6,511 bases of DNA from a virus (Duplodnaviria; Heunggongvirae; Uroviricota; Caudoviricetes). The translations under genes and the position numbers were made by a program. Positions 1 to 4,606 of this stretch are shown here, in pieces. The stretch covers positions 1 to 6,511 of IMG/VR virus record IMGVR_UViG_2698536485_000005; one strand, written 5' to 3'. Under the pieces are notes generated by a model. It saw only the letters and a list, made by a program, of their open reading frames with translations. It searched no databases and had not been told where the DNA came from. The first letter of the stretch is position 1. Each line of letters starts with the position of its first letter.

Positions 1-151
1 AGAGCCGTGTTTATTGAGTCGGTATTCAGAGTCTGACCAGAAATTATTAATCTGGTGAAGTTTTTCCTCTGTCATTACGTCATGGTCGATTTCAATTTCT
101 ATTGATGCTTTCCAGTCGTAATCAATGATGTATTTTTTGATGTTTGACATC
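1..151 (-). CDS. Hypothetical protein, N-terminal 50 codons only (runs off the left edge of the window); start ATG at 151..149
   Basis: Open minus-strand frame from ATG (151) to the window edge: MSNIKKYIIDYDWKASIEIEIDHDVMTEEKLHQINNFWSDSEYRLNKHGS... GAGG about 9 nt upstream of the ATG; in-frame stop immediately upstream fixes the start. Not in the ORF track because it is partial. No family recognised. Confidence 0.45.
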
Positions 152-171
152 TGTTCATATCCTCACAGATA

Positions 172-197
172 AAAAATCGCCCTCACATTGGAGGGCA
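172..197 (-). terminator. Intrinsic (rho-independent) terminator on the minus strand, downstream of the 346..795 gene
   Basis: GC-rich 6-bp stem GCCCTC (180..185) / GAGGGC (192..197) with a 6-nt loop; on the minus strand the stem is followed directly by a run of six T (plus-strand A-run 172..177). Confidence 0.6.
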
Positions 198-258
198 AAG
201 AAGATTTCCAATAATCAGAACAAGTCGGCTCCTGTTTAGTTACGAGCGACATTGCTCC

Positions 259-345: not shown

Positions 346-795
346 TTACTTAACCAATGATGCTGCATATTCGATAAGGTAAAGTTTTGGGGCCAGCCAA
401 ATTTTTAACCAAGTCATATTGGTTACTACACCAATAATAAAAATCCCCCACAGAGTCAAAACTCCAACCAATGGCATGATAAGAAGGTTAATATCTCCTT
501 TGCTATCCCAAACCATTGTCGGCCTGTATTTGGGATTTCCCATCTCCCATGAGTATCCTTCATCACCGATTTTACCTGTCTCAACTCTTTGGCACTGCTT
601 CTTCATAAACCAGAAAACCAGTGGGATTGTTAGAATGGCTATTAATGTTTTAATCAGACTGTCAACCATATTCCATAGCAGCAACTGATGAACAACATCA
701 GGAATCTGTGCCTGGCTAAATGAAACAGCCGCGTCTATTCCATTACTGGCTTTTTGCAGTAGTTCTACGAGAATCTTGTTTGCTTGTTCTTCCAT
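346..795 (-). CDS. Small integral membrane protein (149 aa, two predicted transmembrane helices), function unknown; candidate prophage exclusion/abortive-infection effector
   Basis: ATG start with AAGGTG 4 nt upstream on the minus strand. About 46 soluble N-terminal residues, hydrophobic helix LIKTLIAILTIPLVFWFM, about 38-residue loop, second hydrophobic helix INLLIMPLVGVLTLWGIFIIGVV, short C-terminal tail. A+T-rich relative to the replication genes. No family recognised from memory. Confidence 0.7.
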   Translation of the reverse strand: MEEQANKILVELLQKASNGIDAAVSFSQAQIPDVVHQLLLWNMVDSLIKTLIAILTIPLVFWFMKKQCQRVETGKIGDEGYSWEMGNPKYRPTMVWDSKGDINLLIMPLVGVLTLWGIFIIGVVTNMTWLKIWLAPKLYLIEYAASLVK

Positions 796-873
796 ATATC
801 ACCTTAAATAGTGGATTGCGGTAGTAAAGATTGTGCCTGTCTTTTAACCACATCAGGCTCGGTGGTTCTCGTG

Positions 874-925
874 TACCCCTACAGCGAGAAATCGGATAAA
901 CTCTATTCACCCCTACAGAGAGAAT
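874..925. repeat. Two near-identical 16-17 bp direct repeats (ACCCCTACAG[C/A]GAGAA) spaced 34 bp apart in the divergent intergenic region
   Basis: Copy 1 at 875..890 (ACCCCTACAGCGAGAA) and copy 2 at 909..924 (ACCCCTACAGAGAGAA); they lie between the divergent starts at 795 (minus) and 941 (plus), the second copy just upstream of the GGAG ribosome-binding site of the 941 gene. Confidence 0.5.
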
Positions 926-940
926 GATGGAGATTCACCG

Positions 941-1480
941 ATGAGTAACTGGTGGCAGGAACTATTACGTTTCTTCCTGCGTGGTCTTACGCTACAACAG
1001 TTAATTCATATGCTTATTATTTTAATTGCCTTGATAATAATCACCCCAGCATCAATTAAAGAGTGGGTAGATATAAGGAACCCCGAAATACTTCCAGATC
1101 ACTGGATGTATTACGCAATGCTTTTGTGTATCAGTTATGTTCTGAACAGGGTGATGGAGTTTATATTTCTGGCATCTTCAGACAGATATAAAAAATATCT
1201 CAGTAAGAGAGATGAGGCTAAAGTAATTGTGGAGACTGAGCACCTGTTCAATTCTCTGAGTATTCAGGAAAAAGAGGTTTTAGCATTTGCTGTTATGGCA
1301 AATAACAAAATTGTACTTAAGCACGGCGATCCGGTCGCTTTATCTCTTATGAGAAAAGGCCTTCTCCATCGCTCAGGTGTGACTTACAGCGCGTCAGGTA
1401 AAGAGAAATTTGTTATACCTGACGTCTGGTTCCATGAGTGTTATATGCGCTTTGCTGGTAAAGCTGATGAGCTAATTTAG
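941..1480 (+). CDS. Membrane-anchored protein (179 aa; two N-terminal TM helices plus about 100-aa soluble C-terminal domain); possible SieB-like superinfection exclusion protein
   Basis: ATG with GGAG 8 nt upstream. Hydrophobic segments LIHMLIILIALIIITPA and WMYYAMLLCISYVLNRVMEFIFLA. Lies next to the immunity region and convergent with the predicted pL, the arrangement I recall for sieB in lambda/P22/Rac. Size and topology fit SieB, but sequence homology was not verified. Confidence 0.6.
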   Translation: MSNWWQELLRFFLRGLTLQQLIHMLIILIALIIITPASIKEWVDIRNPEILPDHWMYYAMLLCISYVLNRVMEFIFLASSDRYKKYLSKRDEAKVIVETEHLFNSLSIQEKEVLAFAVMANNKIVLKHGDPVALSLMRKGLLHRSGVTYSASGKEKFVIPDVWFHECYMRFAGKADELI

Positions 1481-1594
1481 TTCCTCGACGGCGGGGGATC
1501 GTCATCTCGCTGTCAGTTGTTTTGATTTCCTGTTGCCTGCCGCGTAAAGAGCTTGTGTCACGAGATCGCTAACCCCGTATATAAAAACACTTCA

Positions 1595-1610: not shown

Positions 1611-1706
1611 GGAAATGTTCTTTTGTAGTGAGCAGCATTGCCGTTCATCCTGAACCCGCCGCGCTCCCGACGCATGGTTTAATGTCGCGCCGTTCGACAT
1701 GGCTTA

Positions 1707-1735
1707 ACTATATCCAAAGCTATTATTGATGTAAA
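1707..1735 (-). promoter_or_regulatory. pL-like early leftward promoter
   Basis: On the minus strand: -35 TTTACA (plus 1730..1735), 17-bp spacer, -10 TATAGT (plus 1707..1712); predicted start near 1700. Both hexamers overlap operator-like sites. Confidence 0.6.
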
Positions 1736-1833: not shown

Positions 1834-1860
1834 AAAAAACCCGCAAAAAGCGGGTTTGTT
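1834..1860 (-). terminator. Intrinsic terminator immediately downstream of cI (minus strand), possibly weakly bidirectional
   Basis: Stem CCCGC (1840..1844) / GCGGG (1850..1854) with an AAAAA loop, flanked by an A-run (1834..1839) that gives a T-run after the stem on the minus strand; it sits about 20 nt past the cI stop (1877..1875). The plus-strand side has only an interrupted T-run. Confidence 0.65.
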
Positions 1861-1874
1861 GTGGTGTGATGAGG

Positions 1875-2606
1875 TTAGTAGTCAACTACAGACCACCAGA
1901 AGATTCTTCCGATGATCTCGATATCGCTTAGATTCTTTTCTTCTTGTGGGTATTCCAGTGAGTTAAAGCTTCTAATGCTTACCTTGTCAGGCCCTGATCG
2001 AAAGAGAATCTTAATGCGTTTCCAACCGTTCTCGTTAATGGCGTAAATCTTTCCGTCAACTATTTTCTTATCGTTGGTGTTAACAGCAACTGTTGTTCCA
2101 TCAGGAATGTTTGGCTCCATGCTGTTGCCACGAGCCGGAAAACAAACAACCCCGCTTCCATCACTGTTCGCACCAACTCTGCGAAGGGTTGATTTGGAGA
2201 AGCGCAACATAAAGCCGTTGTGATCTTCATCAATCACCCGACCATCCCCGCATGCAAACTCAATATCTTTAAGGTAAGGAATTTCAACTTCATCACCTCT
2301 TAAAGGCGTTCCTCCATCCCATGGGTCCAAATATCCCCACGTGCTTTCATGAGGAATAGAAGATTTTGGATTATAAGGTTCAACTCCCTCATCACGCATT
2401 GGCCCAGTTCCATCGGAAAGCCATTCCGTACGAACTCCAAGCACTTTTGATATTTCAAAAAGTTTGCGCGTATTGCGTGTTTTTCCAGACGTAAGTTTCC
2501 AGACGCTTGGCTGAGACATGCCAACAGCATTGCCAAGTGAAGCCTGAGTAAACCCAGCCTGATCCATCGCGTATGTAAGCCTTTGAGAAAAAGTATCTAG
2601 TTTCAT
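1875..2606 (-). CDS. cI: CI-type prophage repressor: N-terminal HTH DNA-binding domain plus C-terminal LexA-like S24 autopeptidase domain
   Basis: 243 aa. N-terminal HTH region (...GFTQASLGNAVGMSQPSVWKLTSGK...), C-terminal GNSMEP serine motif (Ser162) and downstream GWKRIK lysine, with a linker F-A-C-G about 42 residues before the Ser. Divergent from cro across an operator region; apparently leaderless start, as for lambda pRM transcripts. Confidence 0.93.
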   Translation of the reverse strand: MKLDTFSQRLTYAMDQAGFTQASLGNAVGMSQPSVWKLTSGKTRNTRKLFEISKVLGVRTEWLSDGTGPMRDEGVEPYNPKSSIPHESTWGYLDPWDGGTPLRGDEVEIPYLKDIEFACGDGRVIDEDHNGFMLRFSKSTLRRVGANSDGSGVVCFPARGNSMEPNIPDGTTVAVNTNDKKIVDGKIYAINENGWKRIKILFRSGPDKVSIRSFNSLEYPQEEKNLSDIEIIGRIFWWSVVDY

Positions 2607-2945: not shown

Positions 2946-3064
2946 TAAAGCAAATCTTTATACCGAACGGCCCGGTATACGGTCGGGTGCCCGGCGTGGT
3001 CAAGGATGACTGTCAATGGTGCACGATAAAAACCCAAATTATTTATCTATGGAGATAGTAAGAA

Positions 3065-3658: not shown

Positions 3659-4606
3659 ATGAGCAATACAGCAAAAATCTACGATTTCAGCGCCGCACAC
3701 GAGCGCAGGAGCAACAGGATGGAGAACCAGAAAACTGGTTACATTCCGTTGTACCGGAGCATTCTGAAACAGTCATGGGCGAAAGATGTTTATCTTCGCA
3801 CCCTGTGGGAAAACCTTCTCCTGAATGCCGCCAGAAAGCCATACAAAGCGAATTTCAAAGGTCATGAATGGCATCTGCAACCCGGTCAACTGGTTGTGAC
3901 AGCAGCTGATTTAGGTCTTCAGTTATGCGACAGGCATGGCAAGCCGGCAAGCCGTGATCAGGTTGAGCGGATGCTTCAGGTTTTTGTGAAAGAGGGGATG
4001 ATCTCCATTGATGGAGAGAAGCAAAAAGGTCGTGTGATCACCATCACAAATTACCATGAATACGCTCAAAAAATGGACAATTCACCCGCACATGATGCCG
4101 CACAAACAACCGCACATGATGCCGCACATGATGAAGACAGTAATGGCGCGGCTTTCAGCGTACATGCCGCACATGAAAGCGCACATGAAGCCGCACAAAC
4201 AACCGCACATCATGAACAAGAAGGTATTAACAAGAATATAAATAATACCCCCCTACCCCCCAATGGGGGCGGCGATGGGCAGGTTAAACCTGAACGTCGC
4301 AAGGCAGAACGCATCGACTACGAATCCTTCCTGAACGCCTACAACACCGAAGTCGGTGACAGACTGCCACACGCTGTTGCGGTCAACGAGAAACGCAAAC
4401 GCCGCCTGAAGAAAATCATCCCGCAACTGAAAACGCCAAACGTGGACGGTTTCAGAGCGTATGTCAGGGCGTTTGTGCATCAGGCCAAGCCGTTTTACTT
4501 CGGAGACAACGACACGGGCTGGACGGCCGATTTTGATTACCTGCTGAGAGAAGATTCGTTAACGGGAGTTCGGGAAGGGAAGTTTGCAGACAGGGGGATT
4601 GCATGA
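3659..4606 (+). CDS. O-like replication initiator protein (315 aa) with the internal origin
   Basis: N-terminus [10 protein letters not shown]... resembles the lambda O N-terminus (MTNTAKI...). The middle of the gene carries tandem 12-bp DNA repeats encoding an Ala/His/Asp-rich linker, followed by an AT-rich tract; the stop overlaps the helicase start (ATGA). Confidence 0.88.
4086..4250. repeat. Replication origin: eight 12-bp iteron-like direct repeats in two blocks of four, followed by an A+T-rich unwinding region
   Basis: Block 1 at 4086..4133 (CCGCACATGATG, CCGCACAAACAA, CCGCACATGATG, CCGCACATGATG); block 2 at 4167..4214 (CCGCACATGAAA, GCGCACATGAAG, CCGCACAAACAA, CCGCACATCATG); AT-rich stretch 4215..4250; then a CCCCC...GGGGG element at 4251..4270. 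Same iteron-plus-AT-tract-inside-O layout as ori-lambda. Confidence 0.7.

Follow-up and report, generated by a model that had tools for sequence, protein, structure and literature searches.

A P22-type sieB exclusion unit and an unrelated membrane-protein cassette probably meet at a conserved linker beside the immunity region of a prophage

The closest described counterpart of the locus presented here is the sieB/esc/sas unit of phage P22, a superinfection-exclusion system of the abortive-infection kind, for which the biology of the exclusion protein SieB, its inhibitor Esc and the antisense RNA sas has been reviewed (PMC10883804, PMC12197685, PMC7067206), and whose antisense RNA has been published as P22A-sas, a 127-nt RNA-seq species (PMC13397905). 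In the P22 records, the promoter PsieB is placed at 29690-29720 and the start of the sieB RNA at 29727, whilst esc is annotated from Met25 of SieB. Two further phages frame the comparison: lambda, in which the corresponding segment has the order ea10-ral-orf28-sieB-N and sieB also goes by the name git, and HK022, in which N is absent and put antiterminator elements lie just downstream of pL and pR.

Herein we analyzed a 6,511-nt stretch of prophage DNA (“the window”; IMG/VR record IMGVR_UViG_2698536485_000005), in which a sequence-only reading had singled out two divergent, A+T-rich membrane-protein genes as a candidate undescribed exclusion/defence module. We instead read the region, with a probability of roughly three in four, as the known sieB exclusion unit plus an unrelated cassette, joined at a conserved recombination linker and not forming one system. 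The layout first described from the letters was confirmed. Two ORFs encoding membrane proteins of 149 aa (minus strand) and 179 aa (plus strand), each with two hydrophobic segments (Kyte-Doolittle, 19-residue window, ≥1.6), diverge from a 145-bp spacer (796-940) that holds a direct repeat (15/16 matches, start-to-start spacing 34), and the pair lies to the left of a pL-like promoter (1735..1707) and an S24/HTH repressor gene (1875-2606), both on the minus strand. The spacer and the right-hand gene comprise the following features:

818-945, minus strand: equivalent of the P22 antisense RNA sas (alignment to P22A-sas), which within the pL transcript also serves as leader to the leftward gene
872-902, plus strand: PsieB promoter (position transferred by alignment from the P22 annotation)
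875-890, plus strand: direct repeat copy 1, ACCCCTACAGCGAGAA, in the PsieB -35/spacer region (from the sequence)
909-924, plus strand: direct repeat copy 2, ACCCCTACAGAGAGAA, beginning at the equivalent of the sieB mRNA +1 (from the sequence)
941-1480, plus strand: 179-aa ORF (ORF list), assigned as sieB, for a P22-type superinfection exclusion protein B (PF14163, phrog_1301, identity to P22 SieB)
1010-1480, plus strand: predicted esc, an in-frame, N-terminally truncated product from Met24 (aligned to the P22 esc start)
1487-1514, plus strand: terminator-like hairpin just past the sieB stop codon (terminator scan)

By homology, the right-hand gene is sieB, a long-known prophage exclusion gene. 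Its product matches the Pfam SieB model PF14163 at 72.8 bits (gathering cut-off 26, residues 23-154 covered) and phrog_1301 at 6.1e-94, P22 SieB aligns with it at 48.9% identity over 99% of the query (E = 1e-42), and an identical protein already carries the NCBI name super-infection exclusion protein B; the gene can hence no longer be called undescribed. The lysogen-type exclusion role that had been proposed for the pair survives for this gene, which is sieB itself (cited at the time as an analogy only), while its supposed novelty does not. The hydrophobic segments of the protein (~11-45 and ~59-78) are followed by a polar C-terminal part of ~100 residues (79-179), and an AF2 model, built on an alignment of only 5 sequences, agrees, with helices at 18-34 and 55-104, while residues 108-171 form a compact domain (pLDDT ~90). 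Foldseek matches to winged-helix proteins were all non-significant (E ≥ 0.055), and we regard them as a lead only. No family in PADLOC-DB v2 matched either the 179-aa or the 149-aa protein at E ≤ 1, and SieB is evidently absent from the models of that database. The allele itself stands apart, with no relative above 60% identity among 50,697 phage records.

The spacer, as judged by alignment, is the conserved PsieB/sas control element with both repeat copies inside it. It is not a regulatory region peculiar to these two divergent genes: the element lies upstream of every sieB allele examined, and ral, orf28 or other genes stand to the left of the linker. The PsieB block is ~94% identical to that of P22 and ~96% to that of lambda, the element as a whole is 94-100% identical across P22, lambda and many other phages, and 117 phage records match it. 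P22, SPN9CC and pCDF6_2 have nearly the same spacer despite their different leftward genes, and the linker is shared with lambda at 96.4% identity over 109 nt, although the SieB proteins of lambda and the window are only 21% identical and give no significant pairwise BLASTP match. The start of the P22 sieB mRNA corresponds to position 909 in the window. When the spacer was dinucleotide-shuffled 1,000 times, no shuffle equalled the agreement of the repeat copies at 15 of 16 positions (best 14, once), and the repeat core ACCCCTACAG is present in both copies in lambda and in P22. On the minus strand, 818-945 is ~93% identical to the 127-nt P22A-sas species (PMC13397905), with the 3' 100 nt differing by one base; that species lies mostly upstream of the sieB +1 and has no obvious match to the 105-nt sas length quoted in review. 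The invariant Met at the annotated P22 esc start aligns with M24 of the window protein (ATG 1010-1012), which indicates that the in-frame Esc start is kept and that an Esc product can be predicted. The sas-equivalent RNA showed no sign of unusual stability when folded (z = −0.15), and an Rfam scan of the whole window gave no credible family. Sequence variation in the sas-equivalent RNA is too low for covariation analysis.

By conservation with P22, where the mechanism is established, positions 818-1480 would make up the full sieB exclusion unit of the P22 type. Within a lysogen, sieB mRNA would arise from the weak promoter PsieB, starting at about position 909, with one repeat copy lying in the promoter and the other starting at the mRNA +1. 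Full-length SieB is predicted to be anchored in the membrane by two N-terminal TM helices, with its C-terminal domain soluble; upon superinfection by a sensitive phage, it would halt macromolecular synthesis midway in the lytic cycle. Esc, translated from the internal Met24 on the same mRNA, would inhibit SieB. When the phage's own pL fires, antisense transcription running leftward through the sas region, which spans the leader and the start codon of sieB, would shift translation from SieB to Esc, so that the phage could escape killing by its own or a resident SieB. Since the window SieB is just 49% identical to that of P22, we infer its target range and its Esc/sas behavior only by extension from P22.

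Transcription towards the left-hand gene would begin at pL, around which the following features were resolved:

1501-1553, minus strand: 3'-terminal remnant of an N antiterminator gene (94.3% identity with the last part of N from HK97/mEp234/HK106)
1630-1692, minus strand: HK022-type putL antiterminator RNA element (coordinates transferred from the O276 annotation)
1707-1735, minus strand: pL promoter, TTTACA, 17-nt spacer, TATAGT (promoter scan, 10/12)
1837-1857, minus strand: terminator of the cI-type repressor gene (terminator scan)
1875-2606, minus strand: cI-type repressor with HTH and S24 peptidase domains (Pfam PF00717, PF01381)

An intact N is absent, with no minus-strand ORF of at least 40 aa in 1481-1874. 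The putL element is 92.8% identical to putL of HK022/HK75/O276, the putR between cro and cII is identical to that of HK022/O276 over 56 annotated bases, and the -10 of the window pL coincides in alignment with the annotated -10 of HK022 pL; Rfam yielded no family matching the put elements. Together, these alignments point to a prophage that lacks N and would rely on antitermination of the HK022 putL/putR type.

The left-hand gene is set among the following features:

1-159, minus strand: ea10-like (DUF2528) gene, of which the window includes only the 5' part, and next gene of the early-left operon (Pfam, PHROG)
177-198, minus strand: terminator-like hairpin and T-run between the 149-aa gene and ea10 (terminator scan)
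346-795, minus strand: 149-aa ORF (ORF list) encoding a predicted inner-membrane helical hairpin of PHROG 3054 (phrog_3054, AF2)
800-805, minus strand: Shine-Dalgarno AAGGTG for the leftward gene, from the conserved linker (read from the sequence)

The surroundings of the 149-aa gene are those of lambda. The ea10-like fragment (PF10800 at 3.5e-14, phrog_646) is near-identical at the DNA level to lambda ea10 and its upstream region, the hairpin at 177-198 is lambda backbone (one base off lambda and shared with an O157 prophage), and window positions 100-~328 and 796-~905 are near-identical to the lambda DNA that flanks ral and orf28. The AAGGTG bases also precede lambda orf28, and a homologous stretch precedes P22 ral. 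On this evidence, the 149-aa gene is best described as a cassette that occupies the ral slot in the early-left (pL) operon, replacing ral and orf28 between lambda-identical linkers. Both genes of the pair have a lower G+C content (39.8% for the 149-aa gene, 39.3% for the 179-aa gene) than the replication genes (50.3% for the O-like and 52.6% for the DnaB-like gene), as had been noted, but this does not extend to the horizontal acquisition that was read into it: low G+C is a trait of the whole early-left/immunity region, since the ea10 fragment (35.2%) and cI (44.3%) are also low and the flanks are near-identical to lambda. A+T-richness was accordingly dropped as the mark of a recently acquired island. 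The notion that the 149-aa gene is an acquired moron likewise found no support, given the replacement of ral and orf28, the lack of a strong promoter of its own and its orientation along pL. Specifically, a minus-strand scan from 796 to pL found no sigma-70-like site at the standard threshold, and a relaxed scan gave only sites with 8/12 matches, one of them a weak promoter-like site inside sieB (-10 at 1021-1016, minus strand). In other phages, a gene of the 149-aa type begins 8-24 nt past N, and it is co-oriented with the pL operon in all contexts examined.

As an independent ral-slot cassette, 346-795 would use the ribosome-binding site of the linker. The pL transcript is expected to run leftward through putL, antisense to sieB and into the 149-aa gene, and the protein would be made upon pL derepression by a polymerase rendered termination-resistant via the HK022-type putL, and would not be made from the repressed prophage. 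The weak site at 1021-1016 or a putative sas promoter could, however, feed the gene in lysogens.

Whether the two genes belong together is answered most directly by their distribution. If they were one undescribed membrane-acting exclusion/defence module of two genes, co-regulated from the spacer and expressed in the lysogen, they would have in their favor that they are adjacent and divergent, that both products are membrane proteins, and that the divergent arrangement is seen again in a few draft contigs and in 7 of the 80 viral loci (the IMG/VR loci with close relatives of the 149-aa gene). Yet among 5,426 complete E. coli genomes, where each gene is common singly (the membrane gene in 130, the window sieB allele in 70), the pair is adjacent in none, and upstream of the membrane gene in the 80 IMG/VR loci we found any sieB in 9, ral in 15 and N directly in 12, with N and ral always co-oriented with the membrane gene. 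An identical 149-aa protein is also encoded directly downstream of N and without sieB, and the membrane gene is found without sieB in lambdoid, P22-like and virulent phages. The two genes thus assort independently and are neighbors only through recombination. The right-hand gene, moreover, belongs to a described family with its own known regulators, the spacer is the universal sieB control element whichever gene lies on its left, and neither protein has a PADLOC match. The term “module” is not borne out. The two-gene idea is already largely refuted by the gene distribution, and we consider it extremely improbable. Our preferred reading, that there is no new two-gene defence module here, follows from the right gene being sieB, the left gene being unrelated and the adjacency arising via recombination only.

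Profile searches placed the 149-aa protein only in the unannotated PHROG 3054. It matches phrog_3054 end to end at 2.1e-63 (residues 1-149 aligned with profile positions 1-137 of 137), as do 44 of 44 diverse homologues tested, and the family counts 1,867 cluster representatives at E ≤ 1e-3 (clusters at 50% identity). The hydrophobic segments (~39-65 and ~100-130, Kyte-Doolittle) are accompanied in the AF2 model (mean pLDDT 84.5) by helices at 2-68, 106-125 and 128-148. Conservation is concentrated in a juxtamembrane N-terminal motif, PDVxxQLLxW, and a C-terminal motif, APKLYLxEYAA, both of which sit on one side of the membrane, and the loop between the TM segments is variable and dispensable. 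The K+R counts leave the topology ambiguous, with a mild lean towards periplasmic N- and C-terminal segments. Scans against Pfam, NCBIfam and PADLOC gave no match for the 149-aa protein; the 44 diverse homologues gave scattered chance matches in Pfam and unannotated families only in PHROG. A profile search of PDB sequences with the family gave weak chance matches (best E = 0.41, GPCR chains), fold searches with the protein returned nothing informative, and hhalign probabilities were 0.5% against lambda RexB, 0.1% against P22 SieA and 0.7% against the SieB alignment.

Members of the family occur in phages of Escherichia, Salmonella, Vibrio, Klebsiella and Pseudomonas, with the juxtamembrane motifs strictly conserved, and homologues of the PHROG 3054 type are also abundant in virulent phages. 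In N4-like phages, they lie in middle-gene regions beside nucleotide-metabolism genes, and one homologue is an insertion in a late virion operon of the P22-like type, which shows that members of the family differ in when they are expressed.

T4 Imm and HK97 gp15 are small inner-membrane superinfection-exclusion proteins encoded by accessory genes, to which the 149-aa protein may be functionally analogous. It might thus be a stand-alone exclusion protein, SieA-, Imm- or HK97 gp15-like, that is expressed in the lysogen and blocks DNA entry at the inner membrane, as would suit a small inner-membrane hairpin with conserved motifs on one membrane face, an accessory and swappable cassette, and the mild preference of the K+R counts for periplasmic termini; the homologue inserted in the P22-like virion operon is likewise placed as some exclusion morons are. 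We nevertheless hold such a role to be unlikely. The gene has no promoter of its own at the standard threshold and elsewhere begins closely behind N, its direction is always that of the repressed pL operon, the family shows no similarity to SieA, RexB or SieB profiles and no PADLOC match, and its abundance in virulent phages, where there is no lysogen to protect, argues against a function in the lysogen.

A second alternative takes the placement of the gene at face value, in or beside the ral slot among N, ral, ea10, cIII, kil and gam/bet/exo, and sees in the protein an early host-takeover or counter-defence factor that acts on a membrane-bound host protein, in a role like that of its slot-mates Ral, Kil and CIII. 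The N4-like middle-gene regions agree with this view, and strict juxtamembrane motifs across phages of five host genera fit a conserved host target. The late-operon homologue fits an early role poorly, and our searches gave no target, phenotype or homologue of known function; we rate this role as doubtful.

The small two-TM architecture of the protein, together with the many lytic phages that carry the family and its one occurrence in a late operon, also brings to mind a component of lysis timing, i.e., a holin, antiholin or lysis-inhibition factor. Gene context speaks otherwise: no annotated endolysin, holin or spanin gene adjoins the gene in six annotated contexts, no lysis-related Pfam family adjoins it in three unannotated ones, and there was no Pfam or PHROG holin match among 44 diverse members. 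Placement in the early-left operon of lambdoid phages would also mean the wrong timing for a holin. A holin or lysis role was rejected on gene context, and we rate it as very unlikely.

For the 149-aa protein itself, we favor from its context, and with low confidence, a lytic-cycle envelope effector that would bind a conserved host inner-membrane component and either keep further phage DNA from entering or disable a host function linked to the envelope. A broader and somewhat more speculative suggestion is that the whole family acts as single-gene membrane effectors of temperate and virulent phages of Gram-negative hosts, which via PDVxxQLLxW/APKLYLxEYAA may exclude secondary infection or neutralize an envelope-linked host function.

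These results carry a lesson for annotation, as a divergent pair of A+T-rich membrane genes beside cI mimics a novel defence island and is here, in our reading, a classical sieB/esc/sas unit plus an early-operon cassette. At this locus, only the 149-aa membrane-protein family is uncharacterized, though widespread in temperate and virulent phages; the sieB side is already known. The nearest match to the 149-aa protein is PHROG 3054, which it covers at full length and which is a family without an assigned function, without a Pfam model and for which no solved or annotated structural relative was found. A functional analogy to P22 SieA and lambda RexB is possible, these also being small phage inner-membrane proteins encoded by accessory genes; unlike sieA and rexB, the 149-aa gene lies inside the repressed pL operon.

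At the level of the whole region, the window resembles HK022 in the position of putL relative to pL, in having put elements just downstream of both pL and pR, and in the absence of N; it differs in lacking nun and in that the N 3' remnant and sieB come after putL. With lambda it shares the backbone at 100-~328 and 796-~905, whereas lambda has ral and orf28 in place of the 149-aa gene, as well as N/nutL and rexAB, all absent from the window. The likeness to P22 is closest: the sieB genes belong to the same Pfam family (PF14163) at 48.9% full-length identity, run rightward against pL, flanked by the ral slot and the N/pL side, and have a near-identical PsieB promoter and leader, an internal Met for Esc and an antisense sas region. 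P22 SieB is 192 aa long as opposed to 179 aa here, ~51% of residues differ, and the window protein lacks the P22 C-terminal tail; P22 has ral to the left of sieB where the window has the membrane-protein gene, and gene 24 on the pL side where the window has putL and the N remnant. From lambda to P22 to the window prophage, the ~110-nt PsieB/sas linker is nearly unchanged while SieB diverges to 21-49% identity, and it marks the exact junction at which ral, orf28, the 149-aa gene and other leftward cassettes replace one another.

The window, which is the entire contig LOIV01000036.1 (6,511 bp, assembly GCA_001607845.1), holds early-left, immunity and replication DNA of a lambdoid prophage, with its features arranged as follows:

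1–159, minus strand: fragment of an ea10-like DUF2528 gene, the leftmost feature
346–795, minus strand: ORF of the 149-aa protein, second from the left
941–1480, plus strand: ORF of the 179-aa protein
1875–2606, minus strand: cI-type HTH/S24 repressor
Right of cI, in order: cro (YdaS/P22_Cro-like), cII, an O-like initiator and a DnaB-like helicase

Both ORFs lie where the sequence-only reading had placed them, and Kyte-Doolittle profiles gave the two hydrophobic segments per protein that it had described. Its argument that the pair is an A+T-rich "moron" was not supported: G+C is 39–40% in the two genes and 50–53% in the replication genes, but also 35% in the ea10 fragment and 44% in cI, and the DNA flanking the pair is lambda backbone, so that low G+C is a trait of the whole early-left and immunity region and marks no private island. 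Further right, the mechanical cro ORF (2673–2945) begins at TTG and encodes 90 aa, while the same sequence yields a 76-aa product (PF15943 YdaS_toxin / P22_Cro) in other gene calls, and the true start is therefore probably an internal ATG near 2715. The O-like gene contains two arrays of a 12-nt unit (CCGCACATGATG / CCGCACATGAAA; ~4 copies each, 4086–4133 and 4167–4210), probably origin iterons, which encode a His/Ala-rich repeat within the O-like protein and give rise to spurious overlapping ORFs (4056–4241, plus strand; 4082–4219, minus strand).

The right-hand gene is indeed an exclusion gene, as had been proposed, but not an undescribed one, since it is a divergent allele of sieB. Its 179-aa product matches Pfam SieB (PF14163) at 72.8 bits (cut-off 26) and phrog_1301 at 6.1e-94, is 48.9% identical across 99% of its length to the experimentally studied SieB of P22 (21% to lambda SieB), and NCBI records already list the identical protein under the name "super-infection exclusion protein B". 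At >60% identity the allele was found in no phage among 50,697 records, and it occurs in 70 of 5,426 complete E. coli genomes. It is also carried, together with the immunity region, by pCDF6_2 of E. coli CDF6 (annotated as a plasmid, 178,896 bp), where cI is frameshifted and the sas linker is flanked on its left by a different small ORF and a gene named 'superinfection exclusion protein' (103 aa). The C-terminal domain of SieB (residues ~100–172, window 1240–1456) was predicted with pLDDT ~90, and its best Foldseek PDB matches, none of them significant (E ≥ 0.055), were mostly winged-helix proteins (MarR family, CodY C-terminal domain, ScpB, PadR); a membrane-anchored winged-helix-like domain, if real, would be a lead to how SieB senses infection.

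The 145-bp spacer between the two ORFs carries the direct repeat already noticed, ACCCCTACAGCGAGAA (875–890) and ACCCCTACAGAGAGAA (909–924), 34 bp apart. This repeat is real and non-random (1,000 dinucleotide-shuffled versions of the spacer yielded no 15/16 repeat), and lambda and P22 retain its core ACCCCTACAG in each copy, although its conservation is inseparable from that of the whole control element. The spacer is not a feature of the gene pair but the control element of sieB: aligned with the window, it is almost invariant across P22, SPN9CC and pCDF6_2 beside unrelated leftward genes (ral, a 121-aa relative of the membrane protein, and another small ORF), and in lambda it recurs (96.4% over 109 nt) directly upstream of a very different sieB. 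Matches to the element were found in 117 phage records. The ~110-nt PsieB/sas linker within it (window 810–920; lambda 34372–34480; P22 29628–29761) is 94–100% identical among lambda, P22, HK140, VT1-Sakai and about 117 phage records, while the SieB proteins under it are only 21–49% identical, and it forms the exact junction at which different leftward cassettes are swapped. Transfer of the P22 annotation places PsieB at 872–902 and the sieB mRNA start at 909, so that the first repeat copy lies within the promoter and the second begins at +1. A 127-nt species from RNA-seq, reported as P22 sas (PMC13397905), aligns to 818–945 on the minus strand with one mismatch in its 3′ 100 nt; it and the quoted 105-nt sas may be different molecules.

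When P22-like phages superinfect, SieB halts macromolecular synthesis midway in their lytic cycle, though not in that of P22 itself (PMC10883804), and the antisense RNA sas toggles translation between the sieB-encoded peptides (PMC12197685, PMC7067206). P22 sieB also encodes Esc, a truncated in-frame inhibitor with its annotated start at internal Met25, which corresponds to M24 of the window SieB (ATG 1010–1012), a Met invariant in the SieB alignment. Conservation of every part suggests that the mechanism known for P22 would operate here: low-level transcription from PsieB in the lysogen would give SieB, which would abort lytic growth of sensitive superinfecting phages, and upon derepression, or infection by a phage with the same element, the leftward pL transcript would cross the sieB leader and start in antisense, favouring Esc from Met24, which would neutralise SieB. 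Phages that carry sieB may be able to escape one another's exclusion through the sas they share.

On the left, the 149-aa gene is a cassette of the early operon, independent of sieB. Two stretches of the window, 100–~328 and 796–~905, are almost the same as lambda DNA, the first as the ea10–ral intergenic region and the second as the part separating orf28 from sieB; the gene thus stands in place of lambda ral and orf28, and takes its Shine-Dalgarno sequence (800–805) from the conserved linker. It is co-directional with pL (TTTACA-17-TATAGT, 1735..1707), and a scan between the two revealed no sigma-70-like promoter at standard threshold, nor any canonical terminator on the minus strand. In HF4s and other phages and prophages this gene, or one nearly identical, follows N at a distance of 8–24 nt; among 80 IMG/VR loci with close relatives, 15 carry the gene directly after ral and every upstream N or ral is co-directional with it, and elsewhere the same or a nearly identical gene is sited among N, ea10, cIII, kil and recombination genes. 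The claim that the two genes form a module did not hold: the membrane gene occurs in 130 of the 5,426 E. coli genomes and is adjacent to the sieB allele in none, any sieB lies upstream in only 9 of the 80 loci, and the pairing, found in a few draft contigs, is thus a rare recombinant.

The 149-aa protein belongs to PHROG 3054 (function unknown; 2.1e-63), with no match in Pfam, NCBIfam or PADLOC. Exhaustive HMMER searching recovered 1,867 cluster representatives (50% identity, E ≤ 1e-3), and tblastn found full-length relatives in 181 phage records, including virulent N4-like Schitoviridae, Stephanstirmvirinae and many Vibrio phages; those of the N4-like Schitoviridae are placed among the middle genes, with genes for RNA polymerase II, dUTPase or thymidylate synthase nearby. 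A 42%-identical homologue on a Logan contig (SRR28201056, 4377–4829) sits within a P22-like virion operon between gp4 (P22_Tail-4) and gp10 (Phage_stabilise), and the family is therefore not confined to early operons; this homologue overlaps the preceding 184-aa ORF by 4 nt. Two parts are conserved in an alignment of 44 diverse members: the first 40 residues, running up to the motif PDVxxQLLxW where TM1 begins, and the C-terminal motif WLxIWxAPKLYLxEYAA just after TM2; the inter-TM loop is variable (10 to 40 residues). AlphaFold2 (mean pLDDT 84.5) predicted a long helix (2–68), a loop, a helix (106–125) and C-terminal helices (128–148); K+R counts are ambiguous, slightly favouring a loop on the cytoplasmic side and both termini outside.

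These data support a gene of the pL operon that would be expressed in lytic development and whose product is predicted in the inner membrane. Its orientation, the lack of a promoter of its own at standard threshold and the family members in virulent phages make a stand-alone, lysogen-expressed exclusion protein improbable. We tentatively favour a lytic-cycle envelope effector that would bind a conserved inner-membrane component, given its takeover and anti-defence slot-mates, its frequency in virulent phages and juxtamembrane motifs conserved across hosts; the reading as such an effector, one that blocks further phage entry, has a probability of roughly 0.25–0.3. Host takeover or counter-defence is a tentative alternative, and a role in lysis carries little weight. 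What is new here is a divergent sieB allele; its neighbour belongs to a family that is catalogued already but uncharacterised, and the residual interest lies in that very widespread membrane-protein family without an assigned function.

How pL transcription would reach this gene is suggested by sequences around the promoter. The 394 bp separating sieB from cI contain no N gene, and a 53-bp stretch (1501–1553), 94% identical to the N 3′ end of HK97, mEp234 and HK106, looks like an N remnant from the recombination joining putL to the sieB segment. Just downstream of pL, a putL element (1630–1692, minus strand) within window 1626–1706 is 92.8% identical to HK022 putL, and between cro and cII a putR element (~2968–3030, plus strand) is identical to the compared annotated part of HK022/O276 putR; neither had a match in Rfam 15. 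The presence of both elements and the lack of N suggest that antitermination in this prophage is RNA-based and N-independent; it would let transcription from pL continue across the 149-aa gene and past it. The prophage differs from HK022 in having no nun gene and resembles it in carrying putL at pL and putR between cro and cII.
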